Part shown: in pieces, positions 14,335 to 25,218 of the stretch
How the letters are laid out: every line of letters starts with the position of its first letter
Numbering within the stretch: position 1 is the first letter of the stretch
Virus record (IMG/VR): IMGVR_UViG_3300011008_002687
Location: 32,001-96,000 of that record
Strand: one strand, 5' to 3'
Length of the DNA stretch: 64,000 nucleotides
Source: a virus
Lineage: Duplodnaviria > Caudoviricetes
The notes under the pieces: model-generated
The model's input: the letters and a program-made list of their open reading frames with translations, nothing else
Told to the model about the DNA's origin: nothing
Database searches by the model: none
Program-made: the position numbers and the translations under genes

Positions 14335-15783
14335 CTAACTTCTCCAATAACTGTCTTTGCTCAAACTATCTGTCGGCGGTGCGGAGTATGTCATGCCGCT
14401 TTCAATCGTATTAAAGGCATTTGCTCCTGCGTCCACCATATCCTTGAAATCAGACTGAGGAAAGCTCTCATACTGGTTAAAGAACATTCCGTTCCAGTCT
14501 GCTACCAAAACATCTACAAAGCCGACATCCATTGTCTCGGTACCTTGCCACATTGCCGAAAACGGCTCTGCTCTCGTTACCTTGTCGCCGGATTCCGGCA
14601 TGATCTTTACTATAAATCCGGACAGGAGTTTCATATAACTTTGAGCCTGCTCCTTTCCTGCCTGGCCGGGATCTTGCGGAAGTCTCTGACATACCCTGCC
14701 GTATGTCGCCCTGTCTGACTGCGCCGTCATGAGAATTAGTTTTCTCACATCGGATGCTGCCAACCTTCTATTGATTACATCTGCCACAATGTACCGACCA
14801 TTTCTTCGCTTTCCGATAAGCACTCCTGCTGTATATGCCGGGTTTCCCTCTTCGTCCTCGGATGTGGCTGCAAGGTCCCAACCTCTGCACCATAGGATCA
14901 CATCGTTCGGGATTTCCTCGACCATGTTCACCTGTGTACGCTTGAACATAAGACCTGCCGCCGCCTTGATCTTCCAGTTACCATAAAGCAGACGCTCTCT
15001 GTCAACCAATGGCAAAGCCTGCAGGTTCGCCAAATAGCTCGGATCATTCTTCATGAGGATTTTATTATCCTGCAGCGTACTCGCTATGAATGTCACGCTC
15101 TTTGGCATTGTTTCGGCCTGCTCCTGTCCTATGCCGTTTTCGACTGCTACCGCAACAGCCTCTTTTCTGCTGTCCGTCCAATGGATAACCTCGTTTACTC
15201 TTACCATCCACCTGACTTTTCCGGACCTTTCCGGTATCGGGTATCCTGTTTTCTGATCTATCCACCATGAGATAAACTCTGCCACCCAACTGTCTGCGTC
15301 GGGGTTGCAGGTGGCTCTCACATATGGAGTAACACCGGAGTCTGTTCTATTTCGGGACAGCATATAAAAAAACTGATGCTCCGTAAAGTGCGTCAGCTCG
15401 TCGAAACCGATCATTGCTATCTGTGAACCTTGCCATGATTCGCAATCATCGTCATTATTCAGATGTGCGAAATTGACCGTAGCGCCTTTTGTGAAACACC
15501 AATGTAGTTTAGGTGTCTTTAGCGGATAGGCACCTTGCACGTAGCTGTAAACTTTTCTTGCACTATCCCATAAACCACCGGGGGCGGTTATCTGAGTGTA
15601 CTCCTTTCGGAATATTACCGCATTGAAGTTTGAATTGTTCATGTGCCGCATTGGTTCCAGGAGTAAGCCGTAGGTCTTTCCTCCACCTGCCGCTCCTCCA
15701 TAAATACAAATATCTGCAGGAGTAGCCAGGAACCTTTCCTGTGGTCCTTTCTGTGGTGCCAGGATAATCTTATTCTTCGCCAT
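14335..15783 (-). CDS. Terminase large subunit, phage A
   Basis: Walker A GGAAGGGKT, Walker B IGFDEL, ATCNP, nuclease WDLAA/QDPGQAGK/DMVDA; start set to MAKNK. Confidence 0.93.
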   Translation of the reverse strand: MAKNKIILAPQKGPQERFLATPADICIYGGAAGGGKTYGLLLEPMRHMNNSNFNAVIFRKEYTQITAPGGLWDSARKVYSYVQGAYPLKTPKLHWCFTKGATVNFAHLNNDDDCESWQGSQIAMIGFDELTHFTEHQFFYMLSRNRTDSGVTPYVRATCNPDADSWVAEFISWWIDQKTGYPIPERSGKVRWMVRVNEVIHWTDSRKEAVAVAVENGIGQEQAETMPKSVTFIASTLQDNKILMKNDPSYLANLQALPLVDRERLLYGNWKIKAAAGLMFKRTQVNMVEEIPNDVILWCRGWDLAATSEDEEGNPAYTAGVLIGKRRNGRYIVADVINRRLAASDVRKLILMTAQSDRATYGRVCQRLPQDPGQAGKEQAQSYMKLLSGFIVKIMPESGDKVTRAEPFSAMWQGTETMDVGFVDVLVADWNGMFFNQYESFPQSDFKDMVDAGANAFNTIESGMTYSAPPTDSLSKDSYWRS

Positions 15784-16240
15784 CGTTATCCCTCCCATTA
15801 TCCGGAAGATAAATCTGCACTTCCGTATCATCACTGCCACTGTCCGGAAGTTCCATAGGACGGTCTTGCCAACGGTCACGCTGTCTGTTTTTAAGCCAAA
15901 AGCACATAGCACCGACATCTGGAGGAACGTGCTTTTTCGTGTTCTCAACTCTGACAGGTTTTACACTTCCGTCTTTGTCATACTCCACGATTTTCTTCTC
16001 TTCCACGTAATCATAACCCGTAGCTCTCTCATAGAGACTGCGGATCACCTTCGCATCTGATACGCCTTTTCCCTTTGACAATGCCTCCGCAAATGTCGGA
16101 TGATCTTTCTTCCAACGGCCTATGGTTCGTTTCGATACACCCATTGCTTCGGCTATCTCTTCCTCGGTGGCACCCATAGCGGCCAAAGACCACGCCCAAT
16201 CATCATGGTAGTCGGCATTGTACTTTGGTTGTGCCGCCAT
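15770..16240 (-). CDS. Terminase small subunit, phage A
   Basis: N-terminal HTH, LYERATGY, PPDVGAMCFWLKNR. Confidence 0.85.
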   Translation of the reverse strand: MAAQPKYNADYHDDWAWSLAAMGATEEEIAEAMGVSKRTIGRWKKDHPTFAEALSKGKGVSDAKVIRSLYERATGYDYVEEKKIVEYDKDGSVKPVRVENTKKHVPPDVGAMCFWLKNRQRDRWQDRPMELPDSGSDDTEVQIYLPDNGRDNDGEE

Positions 16241-16246
16241 ACGCTA

Positions 16247-17152
16247 TTAACTCCCGGCTATATAGTCAGCGCAAAGGTACTCAATAAGCTGCCACCGGTT
16301 TTTGCTTGTTATGGTGCCTTCTTTCTCCGCTTTCTTGATTGCCTGCTGTATTACCTTAGCCGCCTCGCCTGGTACTGCGTTGCTGCCAAAGAGCTTTGTC
16401 AAGTAGGTCCAATCCTCTTCCTCATTGTACCCTGCGTCGTCCATCTTCTCGTTGACCGACTGCACCATAGAGTGAACTGCTGCTCCGACATTTCGGATGT
16501 CCGTAAATTTCTGATACTTCGCAAGTGCCTCTACGAACTCCTGGCACTGATCGTATGCCGCTACTCCGATGATGTCCGGAGAAGTGATTTCCAGGTTCTT
16601 CACAAGTGCATCCATATCTTTGACCTGGTGCGGCAGAAACGAAAAGGTCACATTCTTAAAATCAAAAGAAACCGCAGGGCTGAGCATTTTGTCATACTCA
16701 GATAGCGGCTCTTCCAATATGTCCTTGCCTATGAAACTCTCGATCATATCATCAACATCGGTTATCATCTTCACGATTTCCCGGAGCGTCGAATCATCAT
16801 CGAATCCGGAGATCGCATTGTGTGCCAACTGCTTTGCGGCAATTTGACTTCGAGATAACCCGCTTTCATCCACAAGAGCGATAATCTCTTTCAAACCCGC
16901 CGCCCTTGCGCTTTTTATTCGGTGGTGGCCGGATATGATCTCGATTACTCCGTCCACATTCACCAGGAGAGGCAGGCTTTCAAGCTGTCCTCTCTTCGCT
17001 ATGTTGGCCGTCAACTGATCCTGCATCTCATTCTTCATAATGCGGGCGTTGATGTCCTGCTCTTTCAATTTGTCAATGGGTACCTTCGCTATTACTAAGC
17101 CGGAACCCATATCATAAATCACTTCGTAGTTTTTGCTCTGCTCTCCTGCCAT
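16247..17152 (-). CDS. ParB/Sulfiredoxin N-terminal domain protein
   Basis: INARIM...LPLL...EIISGHHR motif; overlaps the upstream MTase gene. Confidence 0.85.
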   Translation of the reverse strand: MAGEQSKNYEVIYDMGSGLVIAKVPIDKLKEQDINARIMKNEMQDQLTANIAKRGQLESLPLLVNVDGVIEIISGHHRIKSARAAGLKEIIALVDESGLSRSQIAAKQLAHNAISGFDDDSTLREIVKMITDVDDMIESFIGKDILEEPLSEYDKMLSPAVSFDFKNVTFSFLPHQVKDMDALVKNLEITSPDIIGVAAYDQCQEFVEALAKYQKFTDIRNVGAAVHSMVQSVNEKMDDAGYNEEEDWTYLTKLFGSNAVPGEAAKVIQQAIKKAEKEGTITSKNRWQLIEYLCADYIAGS

Positions 17153-18519
17153 TTGATTTCCCTCCTTAGCCATTCAATCATTGTCTGATGTTCGTTTCTT
17201 CCCTCAACCAGTTCAGCCTCATATGTCAGCTTATAGCCGTTCTGCTTATCCTCTGCCCTATTTACCAGTTTCATGATGCCCCGTACCTCTTTGTTTTCCG
17301 GGTACTTGGTAAGCATAGCAGTCCGCATTTTTACGACCTTTTCCCGGTCTATGGTGTCAAGGAGCGTATCAACAAAGCCTCTGTTCTGTGCAAGCATATA
17401 GCATAACCGCCCCAAGCGGTATTTCTCGTGTGGTACCTTCATCACATACCACACAAATACGGAATCAGCCGCCATCTTCGATATGCCGAAAACTCCGGCC
17501 ACATATCCGTCTATCAGCAACGCCCTGTTCCAAGTAGCTGAGGAACCGACAAAGTTATGCGTCCATAGCACTCTGTAATACTGGGCTGTTGCCGCCTTAA
17601 TCGGTATGATCTGCACCTTGCTTTCCTCGGTTATCACATGGTCCCTGGGTAGCATACTGCAGTCAAGCGGTTCCAGTTTACTCTCTGCAGGACGCTTGAT
17701 CTTCTTTCCATTCGCAAGGGCCGTTGCCTCTTCCTCCCGGTTCGTAGTGATGTAAGCATTGAGGTCTGCCCTGGTACCGGACCGGGCGTATATCGTATAG
17801 CCTACTGCCTCGCCTACTTTCTTTTCCTGGTAGCAAAGCACCAATGCCTTTGCGTCCATGCACATATCATAGAACTGCTTATGTCCTGTCTCCGGATCAA
17901 ACAACTGGTACTCCGGTTCCTTCCAGGTCATTTTCCCCTGGGTGTCGTAGAACTTCTCATATCCGGAGAAGTATGTCGGCGGATTCGCTATCACGATAGC
18001 GTGGGGATCATCCAGTACCTCTTCCAAGTGTTTCCACATATCAAGCGGTCTGTAACTCATGCCATGCAGGAGATTTCTCACAACCTCAATCTGCCGATTG
18101 ATGCTCTCAATATGTTCTGCTCTTCGCTCTCTGAGGTCAACAAGCATATTGTGAAAATACTCGTTGCCCGCACTCTTCGATGTTCTGAGGTACAACTGTG
18201 CGTACAATGCCGTTGCAGGATCAAGCAGCTCTTCATCACTAAAGCCTTGTGCATGAATTTCCAAAGGCTCCAATGACTGCCCTGTTATCGCATACCCAAG
18301 CACCGTAGGCATCATAGACACATCACTCGTCTCGATCTGCTCCGGCTTAAATCCATTCTGCACTGCAAGATTGCTCATTGCGAATGTTCCGGCACAAGGC
18401 TCAACGAACCTCGTATAGCCCGACTTCGCTGCTGTCTCAATCAATTTCACGAGAAAACGCTGCTCGGATGTTCCCAGGCACCCAAGAAACATTGCTCCCG
18501 GATTCATAAAAAATGCCAT
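17119..18519 (-). CDS. N6-adenine MTase-fold protein fused to a putative GNAT (Mom-like) domain; DNA modification/antirestriction
   Basis: Motif I FVEPCAGT, motif IV IANPPTY; C-terminal ~170 aa with GNAT-like order (VQIIPI, AQYYRVLWTH, LLIDGYVAGVFG, KYRLGRL). Confidence 0.7.
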   Translation of the reverse strand: MAFFMNPGAMFLGCLGTSEQRFLVKLIETAAKSGYTRFVEPCAGTFAMSNLAVQNGFKPEQIETSDVSMMPTVLGYAITGQSLEPLEIHAQGFSDEELLDPATALYAQLYLRTSKSAGNEYFHNMLVDLRERRAEHIESINRQIEVVRNLLHGMSYRPLDMWKHLEEVLDDPHAIVIANPPTYFSGYEKFYDTQGKMTWKEPEYQLFDPETGHKQFYDMCMDAKALVLCYQEKKVGEAVGYTIYARSGTRADLNAYITTNREEEATALANGKKIKRPAESKLEPLDCSMLPRDHVITEESKVQIIPIKAATAQYYRVLWTHNFVGSSATWNRALLIDGYVAGVFGISKMAADSVFVWYVMKVPHEKYRLGRLCYMLAQNRGFVDTLLDTIDREKVVKMRTAMLTKYPENKEVRGIMKLVNRAEDKQNGYKLTYEAELVEGRNEHQTMIEWLRREIKWQESRAKTTK

Positions 18520-18557
18520 TGCCCTCTGTCACTCCTTTCTTTTTGTTCAAAATATAC

Positions 18558-18613
18558 AAAAAGCTGAGGTCAGCCAAAGTATCAACCCCGTAATTTTTGA
18601 TACCCACCTCAGC
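18558..18613 (-). promoter_or_regulatory. Long bulged hairpin plus U-tract in the MTase 5' UTR
   Basis: GCTGAGGT/ACCTCAGC outer stem, GTATCAA/TTGATAC inner stem, then TTTTT on minus strand. Confidence 0.55.
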
Positions 18614-18622
18614 ACATTGCAC

Positions 18623-18656
18623 AAAAAAGGCACCGTACCCTGCCGGATGCGATGCC
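18623..18656 (-). terminator. Terminator after tRNA-like gene
   Basis: GGCATCGCATCC-GGCA-GGGTACGGTGCC then TTTTTT. Confidence 0.7.
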
Positions 18657-18664
18657 GTTGTTTT

Positions 18665-18736
18665 TGGACCGGAACCCCACAATGAAGTGGAATCTCTCTG
18701 ATGGAATCAGAACGTGCTACTTTACACCAGTTCCGG
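18665..18736 (-). tRNA. Atypical tRNA-Gly (anticodon TCC), 72 nt, encoded CCA
   Basis: Hand fold: CCGGAAC TG GTGT-AAAGTA-GCAC G TTCTG-ATTCCAT-CAGAG AGAT TCCAC-TTCATT-GTGGG GTTCCGG T CCA; perfect 7-bp acceptor stem, U33, U73; degenerate D and T loops. Confidence 0.85.
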
Positions 18737-18741
18737 ATATA

Positions 18742-19257
18742 TTAAATCCCTGCCCCTACCAAATCGAAGATGCTCATTTGCTTTGCCTCTTCCTGTGCAG
18801 GTTTCTTATTGTCAACCTTACTCTCTGCCTTTTTCTCCGCAGGCTTAGGTTTCTTTACCTTCGGCTCCGACGGATCGGGCAGCTCTTCAATCAACTCGCC
18901 TGTGTTCTCAGCCCACCATTCTGCGAATACCGTTCTGTGACACCAATCTTCCGGGATTCTCACATCCTCATAACAGAGCAGGACTAACTCTTTTCCTTCG
19001 TCCTGGGCTTTCTTATCGAGCCTCTCGACCATGTTTATGATCTTCTCTGTGCCGATGTCCTCTAACTTTCCGTAGTATGCAGGCTTGAAATCTTCAAGGC
19101 TCATGTTCAGCATATATCCCTTCGGTGCCAGGGAGAAACACTGCTCTCTCAGCTCGTAGCCAAGCGGCCACTTTGGTTTCCCTATACTGATCCCTACCGG
19201 ATAATACTTACCACTCTGCAATTCTTTGTTGCTGTACCGACTAACCCAAATAGCCAT
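18742..19257 (-). CDS. DUF488-family protein
   Basis: GISIG.P, LAP, LVLLCYE, WCHR motifs. Confidence 0.75.
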   Translation of the reverse strand: MAIWVSRYSNKELQSGKYYPVGISIGKPKWPLGYELREQCFSLAPKGYMLNMSLEDFKPAYYGKLEDIGTEKIINMVERLDKKAQDEGKELVLLCYEDVRIPEDWCHRTVFAEWWAENTGELIEELPDPSEPKVKKPKPAEKKAESKVDNKKPAQEEAKQMSIFDLVGAGI

Positions 19258-19433: not shown

Positions 19434-20318
19434 TCAGACCTTCTTCAGGTACAGACTGGACGTGAAACCAGTGTACTTGGTGCCGTTGTAGGTCACCTGA
19501 ATGTACAGCCACTTTCGGCCATTGGACTTGTCCACACTGTAGTAGCCGTAGTTCATGACCTTCAGACCAACAGGCAGGACAACCATGGCCTTGTTTCCGG
19601 TACCGGCACCGTGCCGCATATAAACGGCAGCAGTGGTGACGTACTGTCCGGCCAGCTTCTTGTCAAAGCCCGTGGCATAGCCGGTTGCCCTGACTTCCTT
19701 CACCTTGCCGCTGGTGCTTCCGGATCCTGAACCGGATCCGCTGCCGGAACCAGTTCCGGAACCGCTGCTGGATCCACCAGCCTTGGCACCATCATCAAGT
19801 GCCATGACGGTATGACCGGAACTGACAAGCACGTCACCACGCTTCAGGTAGTCAGAAGATCCGGTGTACTTCTTATCCGTCAGGATTTCATACTTGCCGG
19901 TCTTCTGATAGGCATTCTTCATGGTGCTGCACACCAGGGCATTTCCGGTATATTCCAGTTCCTTGACACCGGCCAGGATAGCCAGCACGGTCTGGAAAGA
20001 ACTGCAATCCGCTTCCGTGGCCACCTTGGACTTGATGTACTTGTCCACGTCATAGCCGTTTGCCTTCAGCTGATCATGCAGCGTGTTCCGCTGGGACTGG
20101 TCATAGCCTACCAGGTTGCTGTTGCACAGCTTTTCACATGCAGCGGCAGACTTTTCTGCCACAGCCGGATCCTTCGGTCTAATGACAACCAGCCAGTCCT
20201 TGTTGTACCAGTAGGAAATCTTCACTTCAAGGCCGGTCTGGTCACCAGCCTTGGCACGTCCGTCCCATCCGGCATTGCCGTTTTCAGAAATGGACGCATG
20301 TCCGATTCTCACAGCCAT
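19434..20318 (-). CDS. Endolysin (CHAP/NlpC-P60-like catalytic domain, GS linker, SH3b-like binding domain)
   Basis: GYDQSQR, ADCSS, GHT catalytic pattern; GSGSG linker; follows holins. Confidence 0.8.
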   Translation of the reverse strand: MAVRIGHASISENGNAGWDGRAKAGDQTGLEVKISYWYNKDWLVVIRPKDPAVAEKSAAACEKLCNSNLVGYDQSQRNTLHDQLKANGYDVDKYIKSKVATEADCSSFQTVLAILAGVKELEYTGNALVCSTMKNAYQKTGKYEILTDKKYTGSSDYLKRGDVLVSSGHTVMALDDGAKAGGSSSGSGTGSGSGSGSGSGSTSGKVKEVRATGYATGFDKKLAGQYVTTAAVYMRHGAGTGNKAMVVLPVGLKVMNYGYYSVDKSNGRKWLYIQVTYNGTKYTGFTSSLYLKKV

Positions 20319-20328
20319 TGTGTTCACC

Positions 20329-20634
20329 TCACTTCTTTTCAAAATAAGCCATCAGCTTGTCAAAGCCGAACATTGCAGCATAGGCCACCATGATGCCCAC
20401 AATGACGAATGCAGCAACCAGATACCATGTCAGCATCATGCCATTCATCTGCCAGTAGGCAATGAACACACCCACCGTCAGAACAATGGACAGGCACAGC
20501 ACAAAGATGTTGATCACCTTGGACGTACTAAGCCAGCTGAAGGATTTCTTCATCACTTCAGTGATGATGTTGACAAAAATGGTCAGAATTCCGACAATGA
20601 TCAGAACCTGACTGATGATAGTTGAATAGTCCAT
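20329..20634 (-). CDS. Holin
   Basis: 101 aa, three hydrophobic segments, AMFGFDK C-terminus, upstream of lysin. Confidence 0.75.
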   Translation of the reverse strand: MDYSTIISQVLIIVGILTIFVNIITEVMKKSFSWLSTSKVINIFVLCLSIVLTVGVFIAYWQMNGMMLTWYLVAAFVIVGIMVAYAAMFGFDKLMAYFEKK

Positions 20635-21511: not shown

Positions 21512-21781
21512 TTACACCGTCAGAAGTCCGTAGACTTCCACCAGGCCTTCCTGGGTGTCCAGGATCTGACTTTCAAGATCAGCCTGCTTGTCAGACTGCA
21601 TCTTGATGTATTCATCCTTGTCATACTGCACCAGGTCATATTCATAACCGGTGAAGCCAGGTTCATCATCCGTGCCTTCGGTGTTGATTGCCGTCACGTT
21701 GCTGGCAATCCAAACACTGAATTCATCCACCACAAGGGGTTCAGGCTGCACGGTTGCCTGTACACGTCCATGATTGATCAT
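21512..21781 (-). CDS. Tail-fibre-associated small acidic protein (XkdW-like position)
   Basis: 89 aa from MINHG; YEYDLVQYDKDEYI plus coiled coil; overlaps the RT 3' end. Confidence 0.6.
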   Translation of the reverse strand: MINHGRVQATVQPEPLVVDEFSVWIASNVTAINTEGTDDEPGFTGYEYDLVQYDKDEYIKMQSDKQADLESQILDTQEGLVEVYGLLTV

Positions 21782-22931
21782 TTTCCTTACTTCCTTTCTT
21801 GATGTGTTTGAAATAGTATGCATCAGCGTATGGCTGAAGCGGATCCAGATACTTTTCAGTCAGACGGTGACTGTCACAGTGGATCAGCCAGCCCTTATAG
21901 GAAGCAATGCTGCACCACTCTGAATAGTTCATTTCCTTGCCGGATTCCACCTTCTTCAGCAATCTGGTCATCTTGTCCTTCATCTGATTGCAAGTGGACT
22001 TTCTAAGAAGGGTGTATTCCTTGAAGATCCGGTATCCAACAAAATCCACACCACGCTGATACGTGGGGAAGATCTGATAATTCCCTTTGATCCTCAAATT
22101 CAGTTCAGACTTCAGGTAGTCACCCATAGCTGCCAGGATCCTGTGAAGTTCTTCCTTGGTACTGGCAAACACACAGATGTCATCCATGTATCTGTAGTAG
22201 TGCTTCACGTGAAGCACTTCCTTCATGAAGTGATCAAAGTCCGACAGGTAGAAGTTGCCGTCATATTGTGAAAAGTAGTTGCCTATGGGAATGCCAATAC
22301 CATCAATGAACTGTTCATCCTTTCGCTGAACAATGGCAACGGTCTTTCCCAGTGACCTGTAAAACGCTATGTTTTCATCCGTGGCCGGACAGGTGCTGAT
22401 ACTGTCAATGATTTCATCAATGACCTGAAGCAGTTCAGGATCCTTGTATTTCTTCCGGTACTTTGCCTTCAGGATGTCATGGTCAATGCTTGGATAGAAC
22501 TTCTGACAGTCAATCTTGCAGCAGAACCGCAATTCATCAGGCACGGTGTCCACAGCGTTCCGAAGTTTCTTGAAGGCTGCATGTATTCCTTTATTTGGTA
22601 TGGCTGAATAGGTATCATCCGTAAAGTGTGCCAACAGCTGTGGTTCAATCACCTGAATGATTGCCCATTGTGCTATCCTGTCAGGGAAGAACGGCAGCTT
22701 GTAGATTTCACGGACTTTGTTTCCCTCTTTCCGAAGGAACATTTCATAGCTGGAAGTGTGATAATCATGGTTGATCATCATTTCCTGAAGCAGCCCTAAG
22801 TAGTACCAGATATTCTTTTCAATTTCCCTTACTTCTTGATACCAGCCTTTTCCTTTCTTGGCATTCTTATATGCCCGGTACAGATTGTCCATTGAAACAA
22901 TCTTTTCAAATAAATAACCATAACGCTTCAC
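21741..22931 (-). CDS. DGR reverse transcriptase
   Basis: GTG start after AAAGGA; KRYG N-terminus, PFFPDRI, KIDCQKFYPSI, GIPIGNYFSQ (DGR GxxxSQ), YRYMDD, DFVGY. Confidence 0.95.
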   Translation of the reverse strand: MKRYGYLFEKIVSMDNLYRAYKNAKKGKGWYQEVREIEKNIWYYLGLLQEMMINHDYHTSSYEMFLRKEGNKVREIYKLPFFPDRIAQWAIIQVIEPQLLAHFTDDTYSAIPNKGIHAAFKKLRNAVDTVPDELRFCCKIDCQKFYPSIDHDILKAKYRKKYKDPELLQVIDEIIDSISTCPATDENIAFYRSLGKTVAIVQRKDEQFIDGIGIPIGNYFSQYDGNFYLSDFDHFMKEVLHVKHYYRYMDDICVFASTKEELHRILAAMGDYLKSELNLRIKGNYQIFPTYQRGVDFVGYRIFKEYTLLRKSTCNQMKDKMTRLLKKVESGKEMNYSEWCSIASYKGWLIHCDSHRLTEKYLDPLQPYADAYYFKHIKKGSKENDQSWTCTGNRAA

Positions 22932-23141
22932 AGTGTTTCCTTTGTATGCACTAAGCCGAACCTTCGACACGCACCGGAACCGGTGCATCCTACCAGTACA
23001 GCCTGTTTAGAATTTTGTCAGTGTTTTGCCAAGCGGCACGGTGACACGGTTGCAGTTCAAACTGGATGCAGAACACGCTGCATCACTTATTTATTGAAAC
23101 ACCCACCCGGTGTTGACCGGATGGGTGCTTTTTAGTGCATG
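22932..23141 (-). ncRNA. Structured DGR spacer RNA between TR and RT
   Basis: Closing stem ATGCACTAA/TTAGTGCAT (22946-22954 with 23132-23140); hairpins at 23100-23127, 23065-23084, 22971-22986. Confidence 0.65.
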
Positions 23142-23274
23142 TACTGACTGCCTGGAGATATTCCGATTACGATTAGAAGACGAATTATTCAGATTCCGAT
23201 TGAAGATCCTGGCTTTCAAGGCATTATTCCATTTACCACTGGATTTAGCTACATGCCAACTGGTGTTACCATTT
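23142..23274 (-). repeat. DGR template repeat (TR)
   Basis: 133-bp ungapped match to 23422-23554; 25 mismatches, all at TR adenines on the coding strand. Confidence 0.96.
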
Positions 23275-23382
23275 AGACTTTTTTGCTTTTTTCCAGTAGC
23301 CATGTGTGGTCTTCCACCTATCTTGCAAATAATCCGACTGTATAACCACGTCACCTATAGTTCTATGTTTCAGGCTATTGCC

Positions 23383-25218
23383 TTACGCAGCGTCAAGTTC
23401 CGCCTTCCTGCTGGGAATGAACACCGACCGCCCGGAGACATTCCGACCACGATAAGAAGACGAATAATGCAGATTCCGATAGAAGATCCCGGCCGCCAAG
23501 GCATTAGTCCACATACCACCGGATATAGCCACAAGCCAACCGGCGTTACCATTCCAGGTGTAATCACCAACAGGCAGGGCACTGGTGCCGGAGAATTCCA
23601 CACCAACAAAGATCCAGTCATAGTCTTCACTATAACCAAAAGCGCTGATGTAGTTGCCGCTGGTGTACGGAATACGGATGCCGGTGTCTTCATAGGGTGT
23701 AGCACCGGTGTCATCAGTAAAGCCGTGATCAGCCACATAAACAGTGCCGAACATGCCAGCCGCAAAACCGGAAGGATTCTGGATGTTGAAGCCGTCTTCC
23801 CACTTCCAGATGTTGCCCAACAGGTTTTCCTCACCACGATAGGACACAGCCTTCTGATGGTTGGCATTCTCTGCTTCACCGGAAGCGTTGCCAAGGTTCA
23901 CCGTGGCACCGGTCAGTTCAGCCATGTTGGTGCTGCCGTCATCGGTCTTGTCCACAATGCCCTTGCCAATGACGGTCTGACTGTTGAAGCTGCCGTACTC
24001 AATCAGCATCAGCAGCTGGGTACCGGCCAGCATGACAGCGTTCTGCTGTTCCCAGCCGTTGCCCATGTTGTGTGCCAGCTTTCTGGTGTTCGCCCTGGTC
24101 AGATTCTGTGTCAGGCCGGAAATGGGCTTGGCATTGGCAATGGAAGCCAGCTTGTCACCCGTGCTGACCGTGAAGTCAGCAACCTGATCATCATCCAAGA
24201 TGTAGGCAGAAGCAGACACGTCATACAGGCAGCCTTCAAAGGCAGACTTGTAGATGAAGTCATCAACGGTTTTCCCCTCATTCATAGTGAACTGGGGATG
24301 GATCTTGAAGCCCTTCTTCGGCACGTCAGACACGTAGTATCTGATCTTCTTGGTCTTCCAGCCCTGGCTGACACCGTTGGCATCAAAGACTTCTTCAATG
24401 GACAGCGGCACAACCTTGTAGTAGAACTTCGGCTGTTCCACCATGACCTGAACCATGGTGCCGATAGGATAGGTGACACCGCCTTTTTCCACGGCCTGAA
24501 GCAGTGCACCACCGGTGGTGTATGCAGTGTCACCCTGGTATGCCAGGACAACACCGTCAGCCGTCATGATGCAGCGCTTTCTGCCGCCGAAGGCATTGAT
24601 GCTGTCAAAACCAGCACCACCGGACTTGTTGACTGCACCGGCCAGACGGGTGAACTTCTTGTTGGCAAAGTCCACTTCAACACCATAGATGTCATTGTCA
24701 GAATATCCGACAAAACCCTTCAGGTCAGCAATTTCATCTTCCAGGGCATCAATGTCTTCAACCGTTGCATAGGCACCGGAATAGACGCTGATGTCCACAT
24801 CATCAGAATTGCCAACCGTGGTGTAGATCTGAATATAGGCAGAAGACACGGTGACACCTTTGTATGCAGGCATGTAGCAGAAACCGGAAGTTTCCACACA
24901 CACGGCATACAGGATTTCACCAATGTCAGGATCCGTGGCATACAGGCCAAGGGAACGGAGATAGTACCCGGCAGCCAGTGCTTCATTGGTGAAGGCCGTT
25001 TCAACCTTCACAGAAGTGTGATTGGTGATGGTCACCCTGGTCACGCTGTTGGTCTGCTTGATCTGTTCCAGTGCAGTCAGACTTTCCAGCTGACTTTCTG
25101 CATAGGTCTTGGAAGACGTGCAGACCTTAGTGAAGACCAGGCTTGCCTGACCAGCAATGATCTTGGCAACAAGTGCCTGACCTCTTGTGGTCAAATAAAG
25201 TTTGCTAAATTCAGCCAT
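23383..25218 (-). CDS. Tail fibre/receptor-binding protein, DGR target (tail-collar N-terminus, C-type-lectin-fold C-terminus)
   Basis: N-terminal LTTRGQAL...GLYATDPDIGEILYA; YRGEENLLGNIWKWEDG; VR at 3' end. Confidence 0.9.
   Translation of the reverse strand: MAEFSKLYLTTRGQALVAKIIAGQASLVFTKVCTSSKTYAESQLESLTALEQIKQTNSVTRVTITNHTSVKVETAFTNEALAAGYYLRSLGLYATDPDIGEILYAVCVETSGFCYMPAYKGVTVSSAYIQIYTTVGNSDDVDISVYSGAYATVEDIDALEDEIADLKGFVGYSDNDIYGVEVDFANKKFTRLAGAVNKSGGAGFDSINAFGGRKRCIMTADGVVLAYQGDTAYTTGGALLQAVEKGGVTYPIGTMVQVMVEQPKFYYKVVPLSIEEVFDANGVSQGWKTKKIRYYVSDVPKKGFKIHPQFTMNEGKTVDDFIYKSAFEGCLYDVSASAYILDDDQVADFTVSTGDKLASIANAKPISGLTQNLTRANTRKLAHNMGNGWEQQNAVMLAGTQLLMLIEYGSFNSQTVIGKGIVDKTDDGSTNMAELTGATVNLGNASGEAENANHQKAVSYRGEENLLGNIWKWEDGFNIQNPSGFAAGMFGTVYVADHGFTDDTGATPYEDTGIRIPYTSGNYISAFGYSEDYDWIFVGVEFSGTSALPVGDYTWNGNAGWLVAISGGMWTNALAAGIFYRNLHYSSSYRGRNVSGRSVFIPSRKAELDAA
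23422..23554 (-). repeat. DGR variable repeat (VR)
   Basis: Encodes NGNAGWLVAISGGMWTN...VSGRSV; differs from TR only at TR adenines. Confidence 0.96.

Follow-up and report, generated by a model that had tools for sequence, protein, structure and literature searches.

Why a phage with a single tRNA gene should carry it in an aberrant form, directly ahead of the gene for a putative DNA-modifying enzyme, is the question raised by the locus described here. The locus occupies positions 16,247 to 19,257 of a 64,000-nt stretch of viral DNA (hereafter the window) taken from the IMG/VR record IMGVR_UViG_3300011008_002687, a 111,269-nt provirus that is rated 100% complete; the carrier is a prophage of gut Lachnospiraceae. 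Four parts are arrayed on the minus strand directly ahead of terS and terL, namely a DUF488-like gene, a tRNA gene, the gene for a fusion enzyme, and a ParB-like gene. The array is one instance of a gene kit that is widespread among phages and stands at the head of the packaging operon. With somewhat more belief than doubt, we read its tRNA as a dedicated aminoacyl-tRNA donor for a post-replicative modification of adenine in which the ParB-like protein assists. The parts of the kit are listed below.

18742-19257, minus strand: DUF488(-N3a)-like gene, 171 aa, the first gene of the kit (PF22751, E = 7.5e-4, 20.2 bits, below the cut-off of 27)
18665-18736, minus strand: private tRNA-Gly(UCC)-like gene, 72 nt (relaxed ARAGORN; clade covariance model)
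17119-18519, minus strand: fusion enzyme, 466 aa (PF22555 DAM-like-phage1, E = 7e-72; PF22559 GNAT-phage-like, E = 2e-34)
16247-17173, minus strand: ParB-like protein (ParB/Srx N-terminal fold), 308 aa, which shares 55 nt with the fusion gene (ParB_N, E = 1.4e-4, below the cut-off)

An initial annotation, drawn from the sequence alone, had described this run as DUF488, an atypical tRNA-Gly(UCC), a 466-aa methyltransferase/GNAT-like gene, an overlapping ParB-like gene, terS, and terL. When the window was checked for open reading frames (ORFs), Pfam domains, and tRNAs, every named element was found on the minus strand where it had been placed.

The tRNA was indeed atypical. At its default settings, ARAGORN reported no tRNA in the window, and Rfam likewise found none there; with Rfam matches accepted up to E ≤ 10, no tRNA appeared in the gap between the DUF488-like gene and the fusion gene, and RF00005 matched neither this region nor any other part of the provirus. 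The window tRNA was visible only to relaxed ARAGORN thresholds and to a covariance model specific to its clade. Relaxed ARAGORN called a tRNA-Gly(tcc) with U73 and an encoded CCA. It lies inside the 222-nt gap, 5 nt past the stop codon of the DUF488-like gene, and 145 nt separate its 3′ end (18665) from the start codon of the fusion gene (ATG at 18519), which matches the distance of about 145 bp first given for it. The acceptor stem is CCGGAAC/GUUCCGG, with C1-G72, C2-G71, and G3-C70 at its top. The D loop (AAAGUA) is without GG, the T stem has 5 bp, and the T loop has 6 nt (UUCAUU, compared to UUCAUUG in relatives); thus, the canonical elbow (G18-G19 and a 7-nt T loop with A58) is not present in the window tRNA. 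The fold of this stretch had a z-score of -3.9 and was better than those of 200 of 200 shuffles.

An alignment of 27 distinct copies from the clade, the window copy included, was used to assess covariation. In this alignment, 99.5% of the cells were paired, and 14 of the 21 pairs featured changes on both sides. None of 500 shuffles was as good, and slid controls were 25-47% paired. No variation was seen at C35, C36, U73, or the first four acceptor pairs, while position 34 and the stems vary. The covariance model R1 was built from the same alignment; it matched the window copy with 77.5 bits (E = 5e-17), its sole match in the 64 kb, and it picked up the RNA in every clade member in which ARAGORN had missed it. 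Because of the strong covariation and an R1 score far beyond chance, the tRNA-like gene is taken as real, and its cloverleaf is under selection. No further tRNA was found in the entire 111,269-nt provirus record, and the statement that it is the only one therefore holds beyond the window.

The identity set of glycyl-tRNA synthetase comprises U73, C35, C36, C2-G71, G3-C70, and G1-C72. All but the last of these are invariant in the window clade, in which the 1-72 pair is C-G rather than G-C. In a host Blautia genome, tRNAGly has G1-C72 and canonical loops, and C1 was found only in tRNAPro and the initiator. One subclade of the window clade (L113 and L115-L130) carries two to three tandem copies of the Gly-type tRNA, all of them NCC; such repetition, which may bear on dosage, was counted in favor of a dedicated donor.

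Linkage of this RNA to the enzyme was followed across the family, which comprises 819 clusters at 50% identity, nearly all of them full-length fusions. Fifty-seven IMG/VR loci encode enzymes that are 76-91% identical to that of the window, and nearly all have the same RNA upstream, with the anticodon UCC, CCC, GCC, or ACC. The RNA also accompanies 17 prophage copies in the genomes of Lachnospiraceae (such as Blautia, Acetatifactor, and Hungatella) and Oscillospiraceae. Prophages of Blautia fusiformis CLA-AA-H217 (L205) and Blautia sp. Sow4_E7 (L204) are among the carriers. The nearest relative (L199, 96% identical) was found in a Lachnospiraceae metagenome-assembled genome from goat omasum, and its T-stem changes relative to the window are fully compensated. 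The initial annotation had proposed a check for co-occurrence of the tRNA with homologues of 17119-18519. The outcome was strongly positive: of the approximately 190 loci that have enough upstream sequence, only two lack a complete tRNA immediately before the fusion gene, and the others have one there down to a protein identity of 24%. Whole-genome Rfam searches returned exactly one tRNA for FP_Brigit (58% identity) and one for ValentiniPuff (30% identity). In both phages it immediately precedes the fusion gene; in ValentiniPuff, the pair spans the genome ends. In the Cluster W mycobacteriophage Jeon (24% identity), the sole annotated tRNA, a Gly(UCC), abuts the fusion gene. All three of these phages have the PF22555 + PF22559 architecture. 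A single tRNA-Gly has been reported for the Cluster W phage Taptic (PMC5356062). Diverse metagenomic contigs repeat the order DUF488, tRNA, fusion, ParB, terS, terL. The queries P0027, P0079, and P0124 returned no viral relatives in the scans.

The identity of the tRNA differs between clades, and the general rule is thus a private tRNA of clade-specific identity. The classes, with their discriminator bases, are as follows.

Gly, U73: the window clade, Jeon, and L069
Lys(CUU), A73, mostly with CCA: the Brigit-like clade, L184/L186, and L188
Arg(UCG, once GCG; UCU), U73, no CCA, C33: a 45-locus clade, L198, and L067
Pro(UGG/CGG), A73: L064, L065, L187, and L189-192
Odd loops containing UUA or CUA, U73 where scored (L068, L070, L197): L068, L070, L197, and L071
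Arg-like 6-nt anticodon loop, U73: ValentiniPuff

The expectation of a glycine-specific tRNA accordingly stands for the window clade and fails in others, which have Lys(CUU), Arg(UCG/GCG/UCU), Pro(UGG/CGG), and stop-type or odd loops. Conservation of TCC together with U73 had also been named as a sign of support; in the window clade, NCC and U73 are invariant, and position 34 is not. The anticodon does not vary freely, in that its class goes with the enzyme phylogeny and the discriminator base goes with the class. When the tRNA class was mapped onto a tree of 45 thinned enzymes, 15 changes were needed, compared to a mean of 27 for shuffled assignments (0 of 200 shuffles were as low), and each class arises about three times. 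Within clades, position 34 changes while 35 and 36 are fixed (Gly U/C/G/A34; Arg UCG or GCG; Pro UGG or CGG). The discriminator is A in the Lys and Pro types and U in the Gly, Arg, and stop types, and most tRNAs of the Gly, Lys, and Pro types have an encoded CCA. Fixed positions 35-36 and a class-linked discriminator are the pattern that would be expected of recognition by a synthetase rather than of codon reading. Among the 68 distinct tRNAs of the system that were scored, only 4 depart from an acceptor top of CCG/CGG, and 3 of those 4 have GCG/CGC (G1-C72); the simplest explanation is a shared partner that reads the acceptor end.

Individual loci with unusual arrangements were also recorded. 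In L067, an Arg(UCU)-type tRNA (L067:360-435) ends right at the fusion ATG, and 3′-end cleavage of this tRNA would therefore leave a leaderless mRNA. In L071, where the sequence upstream extends for only 224 nt, a kit-type tRNA (L071:2355-2428, minus strand of the locus) with a CCGCC... acceptor, U73, CCA, and a short CUA-containing loop is located downstream of ParB on the opposite strand rather than upstream of the fusion gene. In L087, a recombination or assembly breakpoint lies within the Lys-type tRNA (L087:960-1040), and homology to L088 starts from nt 990.

These data bear on whether the tRNA serves the enzyme at all. It could instead be an ordinary translation helper, or a spare or decoy for host tRNAs that anticodon nucleases cut, and could simply have settled at a favored insertion spot where the late or packaging operon begins, with no role in the work of the fusion enzyme; we regard this as unlikely. 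Phage tRNAs are known to act against tRNA-cleaving defenses such as PARIS, which targets tRNA-Lys (PMC12409363), and Lys, Arg, and Gly tRNAs could well be targets; unusual anticodon loops (C33, A33, G33) could block recognition by a nuclease, and the tRNAs of several clades are otherwise canonical and are called at default thresholds. Against this, the DUF488-tRNA-fusion position is shared by phages of Actinobacteria and Firmicutes whose terminases differ in type, the tRNA is the sole one in each whole genome checked, and a common C1-G72/C2-G71/G3-C70 top in four amino-acid classes is not expected of independent spares. Loops of 6 or 8 nt cannot decode, and close relatives alternate among UCC, CCC, GCC, and ACC, which read different codons. 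Codon usage provides no reason for a Gly(UCC) helper, since GGA makes up 27% and GGG only 8% of the Gly codons and close relatives carry CCC.

A cloverleaf could also be kept as a signal for RNA processing or regulation, i.e., as punctuation for RNases P and Z, as a stabilizer of a transcript end, or as a control on the start of the next gene. Besides the tRNA in L067 that ends at the ATG, those of several clades end 13-29 nt before it, and in the window clade the tRNA closes the preceding transcription unit just ahead of a conserved terminator. Two terminator-like features follow the tRNA in the window.

18622-18656, minus strand: terminator-like hairpin and U run directly 3′ of the tRNA CCA (in the minimum-free-energy fold of 18620-18745(-), a GC-rich hairpin and then UUUUUU)
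18562-18575, minus strand: further terminator-like site, in the interval from the tRNA to the fusion gene (a match in a consensus scan only)

The sequence that trails the tRNA, AAAACAACGGCA..., is kept across the window clade. For a processing signal, however, shape alone would suffice, yet positions 35, 36, and 73 are kept in a class-consistent manner while neighboring loop and stem positions drift; the encoded CCA and the family-wide acceptor top would likewise be superfluous, and a cut site needs no tandem triplication. We consider this explanation improbable. It and the helper explanation are disfavored because of the class-consistent identity nucleotides, the common acceptor top, and the loops that cannot be decoded.

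What the enzyme might do with a charged tRNA was approached from its two domains, both of which lie in one polypeptide and score far above their Pfam cut-offs of 27 (PF22555, 242.3 bits; PF22559, 119.5 bits). The full-length model of the fusion had a mean predicted local distance difference test (pLDDT) score of 90.9. A Foldseek search with the full model returned GNATs only and missed the N-terminal domain, for which an exhaustive aligner was needed. With the latter, the N-domain (about residues 11-281) matched Mcbe1 (Z = 13.7), EcoDam (13.4), DpnM (12.4), and T4 Dam (11.8) above other class I methylases, and the model thus assigns it the Dam (alpha-class) fold. It contains the motifs EPCAG, S65-D66, and N179-P-P-T-Y183; G44, S65, and D66 are kept in at least 90% of the representatives, in an EPCxG context, and correspond to the putative SAM-binding loop of motif I and the acidic residue of motif II. 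Motif IV of the window enzyme, N-P-P-T-Y, has one inserted residue compared to (D/N/S)PP(Y/F/W). In family members of 670-790 aa (P0037, P0061, P0066, P0083, P0086, P0091, P0121, and P0149), some 270 extra residues follow the equivalent of residue 183, at motif IV; this insert could be an intein or an inserted domain.

The C-domain (about residues 300-454; pLDDT 96.6 in the model) has a GNAT fold in which R413-G414 is invariant and T400 is nearly so. When it was compared to 999 chains, Mom of phage Mu (8bv8) ranked third (Z = 11.0, 137 residues aligned); in the exhaustive search, Mom was third among the GNATs (Z = 10.6). Family residues R413 and T400 were considered as candidate equivalents of the catalytic Mom residues R111 and S124; no alignment that was obtained extends to those Mom positions. 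Among viral proteins, the nearest structural relative of the GNAT domain lies at the C-terminal end of a 695-aa fusion named "amidoligase" (BFVD A0A8S5SJK3; template-modeling score 0.80, 22% identity), which is a variant architecture of the kit. To our knowledge, Mom is the only enzyme so far known to modify DNA with a charged tRNA. The initial annotation had mentioned a report that Mom uses glycyl-tRNA, and that report exists: Mom transfers glycine from Gly-tRNAGly to the N6 of adenine in double-stranded DNA (Silva et al. 2026, PMC13219725). It rejects Gly-tRNAAla, probably reads the acceptor end of the tRNA, and acts late in infection (PMC13219725). That paper is silent on a phage tRNA, a methylase fusion, ParB, and DUF488 (PMC13219725).

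The protein partners were examined next to the enzyme. Every locus examined has a homologue of the ParB-like gene right after the fusion gene. Its ParB_N score (22.3 bits) is below the cut-off of 26.3, and the NCBIfam model parB_part (E = 9e-6, 25.5 bits) is below its cut-off of 58.45; in the motif S-G-H-(H)-R, S81, G82, H83, and R85 are invariant, and H84 is kept in at least 90%. A DUF488- or DUF488-N3a-like ORF holds the same position in L064, L068, L069, and 7 of 10 further diverse loci, and syntenic DUF488 genes elsewhere pass or come near the Pfam cut-off (27 bits). DUF488 relatives have reportedly been proposed, by Burroughs and Aravind in 2023, to act on the termini of nucleic acids. 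In FP_Brigit, gp17 (L058:1993-3171), about 2 kb upstream of the kit, is an S-adenosylmethionine (SAM) synthetase. In the subclade with tandem tRNAs (L113:57-385 and L113:447-1118; also L115-L130), a gene resembling 5′-methylthioadenosine/S-adenosylhomocysteine (SAH) nucleosidases is located between the tRNA copies and the fusion gene, as in L113 (PNP_UDP_1, E = 2.5e-23; NCBIfam NF004079, E = 1.3e-25, below the cut-off). These SAM synthetase and SAH-nucleosidase-like neighbors hint that the Dam-like domain consumes SAM.

Two further explanations turn on the chemistry of the enzyme. In the first, the tRNA is the substrate rather than the donor: the tRNA or its aminoacyl group would be methylated or acylated, or the tRNA would be joined to DNA ends or to protein during packaging. 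GNATs that modify charged tRNAs, TacT and AtaT, do exist (PMC13219725; PMC9241777), and the kit abuts the terminase genes; the action on nucleic-acid termini that has reportedly been proposed for DUF488 relatives would also fit. The N-domain nevertheless resembles DNA Dam enzymes best (Z = 11.8-13.7), with RNA methylases scoring lower (RlmJ, 10.5; METTL16, 9.6). In addition, ParB-like partners are linked to DNA-modifying enzymes, and class-consistent synthetase identity elements are needless unless charging matters. Such a role for the tRNA is, in our estimation, of low probability.

In the second, the enzyme is a Dam-type N6-methyladenine methylase with a GNAT domain that uses acetyl-coenzyme A (CoA) or is structural or regulatory, and the tRNA is irrelevant to the chemistry. 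The EPCAG, S-D, and N-P-P-T-Y motifs of the window copy would suit a methylase, as would genes for SAM supply and SAH clearance beside some kits, and the top structural matches of the GNAT domain are CoA-dependent acetyltransferases. Against a plain methylase, roughly one family member in three has C, G, W, L, or A in place of the residue that opens motif IV, and nearly all members retain both the GNAT domain and the tRNA. We consider this explanation a little less probable still than the other three. A remnant of attP or of integration was rejected (the tRNA is intact, no integrase gene lies beside it, and kits are also present in cultured Microbacterium and Mycobacterium phages that are distant from this provirus), as was a primer for the nearby reverse transcriptase, which is absent from other lineages.

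Under the favored reading, that of a dedicated aminoacyl-tRNA donor for adenine modification, the sequence of events may be sketched as follows. The host glycyl-tRNA synthetase would charge the phage tRNA, which keeps C35, C36, U73, C2-G71, and G3-C70 despite its C1-G72 pair and non-canonical elbow. The GNAT domain would take the glycyl group off the 3′ end of the tRNA. The Dam-like domain would bind DNA and flip the target adenine, and its N6 would be aminoacylated after replication, before or during packaging, on the model of Mu Mom; SAM is probably also bound or used by this domain. The ParB-like partner would activate the enzyme or load it onto DNA. The DUF488-like protein may have a part as well, and the modified DNA would presumably be protected from restriction. 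In other clades, Lys-, Arg-, or Pro-type tRNAs would lead to the attachment of those residues.

Several observations weigh against this scheme. Some lineages have stop-type anticodons or anticodon loops of 6 or 8 nt for which no synthetase can be named, and the Arg-type tRNAs have U73 and C33. Two loci among the approximately 190 break the linkage, L177 being without a tRNA and L087 having a 3′ half only. In the window, the two terminator-like hairpins stand between the tRNA and the enzyme gene. Motif IV is degenerate in the family, with only P181 invariant among 40 representatives. The sole GNAT residue that covaries with tRNA class is column 415 (Ile/Cys in the Gly and stop types; Leu/Val in the others), a signal too weak to use, and no residue of the GNAT pocket convincingly tracks the amino-acid class. 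Finally, the description of the GNAT domain as Mom-like is only partly sustained. Mom is among its top three structural matches but is tied (within 1 Z) with generic CoA-using GNATs. The window fusion has no match to PF25680, the Mom family, which Mu Mom itself matches at 2.4e-75; PF22559 is not the Mom family. BLASTP against Mom gave E = 0.78, hhalign against Mom gave a probability of 11.6% over 47 columns, and phmmer against PDB sequences gave no match. Because neither the sequence nor the profile comparison with Mom reached significance, the C-domain is Mom-like in fold only.

A bolder extension is that the kits form a programmable aminoacyl-DNA system, in which private tRNAs, orthogonal to the host pool by virtue of their acceptor top, are charged by different host synthetases and a single enzyme type places Gly, Lys, Arg, or Pro on the N6 of adenine. 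We hold this to be possible and put it forward tentatively, with more doubt than belief. If it were true, related phages would bear chemically different, partly cationic adenine adducts and would switch between them via anticodon and discriminator.

The donor reading by itself would have broader consequences. The kit family, with its 819 clusters in phages of Firmicutes and Actinobacteria, is much larger than a single enzyme. If the reading is correct, these phages possess a tRNA that takes no part in decoding and is reserved as a cofactor for DNA chemistry, a Dam-like domain was enlisted to direct this chemistry to its target, and the amino acid may be swapped by retuning the identity of the tRNA. 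A function would thereby be given to orphan single tRNAs of phages and to the DUF488-N3a- and ParB-like genes beside terminases. New adenine adducts would bear on restriction evasion, on sequencing artifacts in the gut virome, and on enzyme tools. Because three cultured phage groups carry the kit, the idea is directly testable.

The kit is flanked by the following genes in the window; a Mu-type portal and MuF come after TerL.

19434-20342, minus strand: endolysin-like gene (ELLD, E = 7.5e-52), which precedes the DUF488-like gene in minus-strand order
15770-16240, minus strand: small helix-turn-helix protein, candidate terS (HTH_23, E = 1.5e-5), located between ParB and TerL like the annotated terS of FP_Brigit
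14335-15948, minus strand: TerL (Terminase_6N, E = 3e-31; Terminase_6C, E = 1.6e-9)

A diversity-generating retroelement is also present on the minus strand (21741-25218). It comprises a reverse transcriptase (21741-22988, RVT_1), an Rfam RT-17 RNA (22942-23043), and two matching repeats, a 131-nt template repeat (23143-23273) and a variable repeat (23423-23553) located at the 3′ end of a 611-aa ORF beside baseplate genes. All 23 of the differences between the two repeats fall at adenines of the template copy.

Among known systems, the gene neighborhood itself has been named in Pfam (PF22751 / PF22555 + PF22559 / ParB); the window genes match these models, and their order is that of all related loci. 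No publication was found that names the tRNA as a part of the kit; the Pfam families carry names, and their functions are putative. The N6-adenine DNA methyltransferases of the Dam family (EcoDam, 2ore; DpnM, 2dpm; T4 Dam, 1q0s) share the fold of the N-domain (Z = 11.8-13.4), an EPCxG that resembles motif I, and an S-D as a possible ribose-binding site, and the NPP-T-Y of the window lies where they have DPPY. The N-domain differs from them in the additional residue of motif IV, the first residue of which is not kept, and in its constant fusion to a GNAT; methyl transfer by it is putative.

The ParB-dependent thymine dioxygenases of phages offer a parallel in arrangement, in that a DNA-modifying enzyme is likewise encoded beside ParB-like and terminase genes, and there the ParB-like protein is needed for activity (PMC13229309). 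They differ in oxidizing thymine with iron and 2-oxoglutarate and in using no tRNA, and the ParB dependence demonstrated for them is only supposed for the fusion enzyme.

The FemXAB enzymes of staphylococci are GNAT-fold aminoacyl-tRNA transferases that are served by dedicated, non-proteinogenic tRNAGly isoacceptors. These tRNAs have altered D and T loops and are poor substrates for translation. The acceptor, however, is a peptidoglycan precursor rather than DNA, and the dedicated tRNAs are chromosomal and keep G1-C72. We know of no adjacency of enzyme and tRNA genes, nor of any switching of amino-acid class, in FemXAB.

Mu Mom (PF25680; PDB 8bv8) is, like the C-domain, a phage enzyme with a GNAT fold and is one of the three best GNAT structural matches (Z = 10.6-11.0), and the window tRNA resembles tRNAGly in its C2-G71, G3-C70, U73, C35, and C36. 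Mom differs in that it is a single-domain protein of another Pfam family, with no significant sequence relation to the C-domain; it is served by host tRNAs, with all three Gly isoacceptors in use, and lacks a private tRNA, a Dam-like domain, and any ParB or DUF488 partner. The tRNA link of the kit, which is both real and widespread, may be read as a variant of Mom-type, tRNA-dependent DNA modification.

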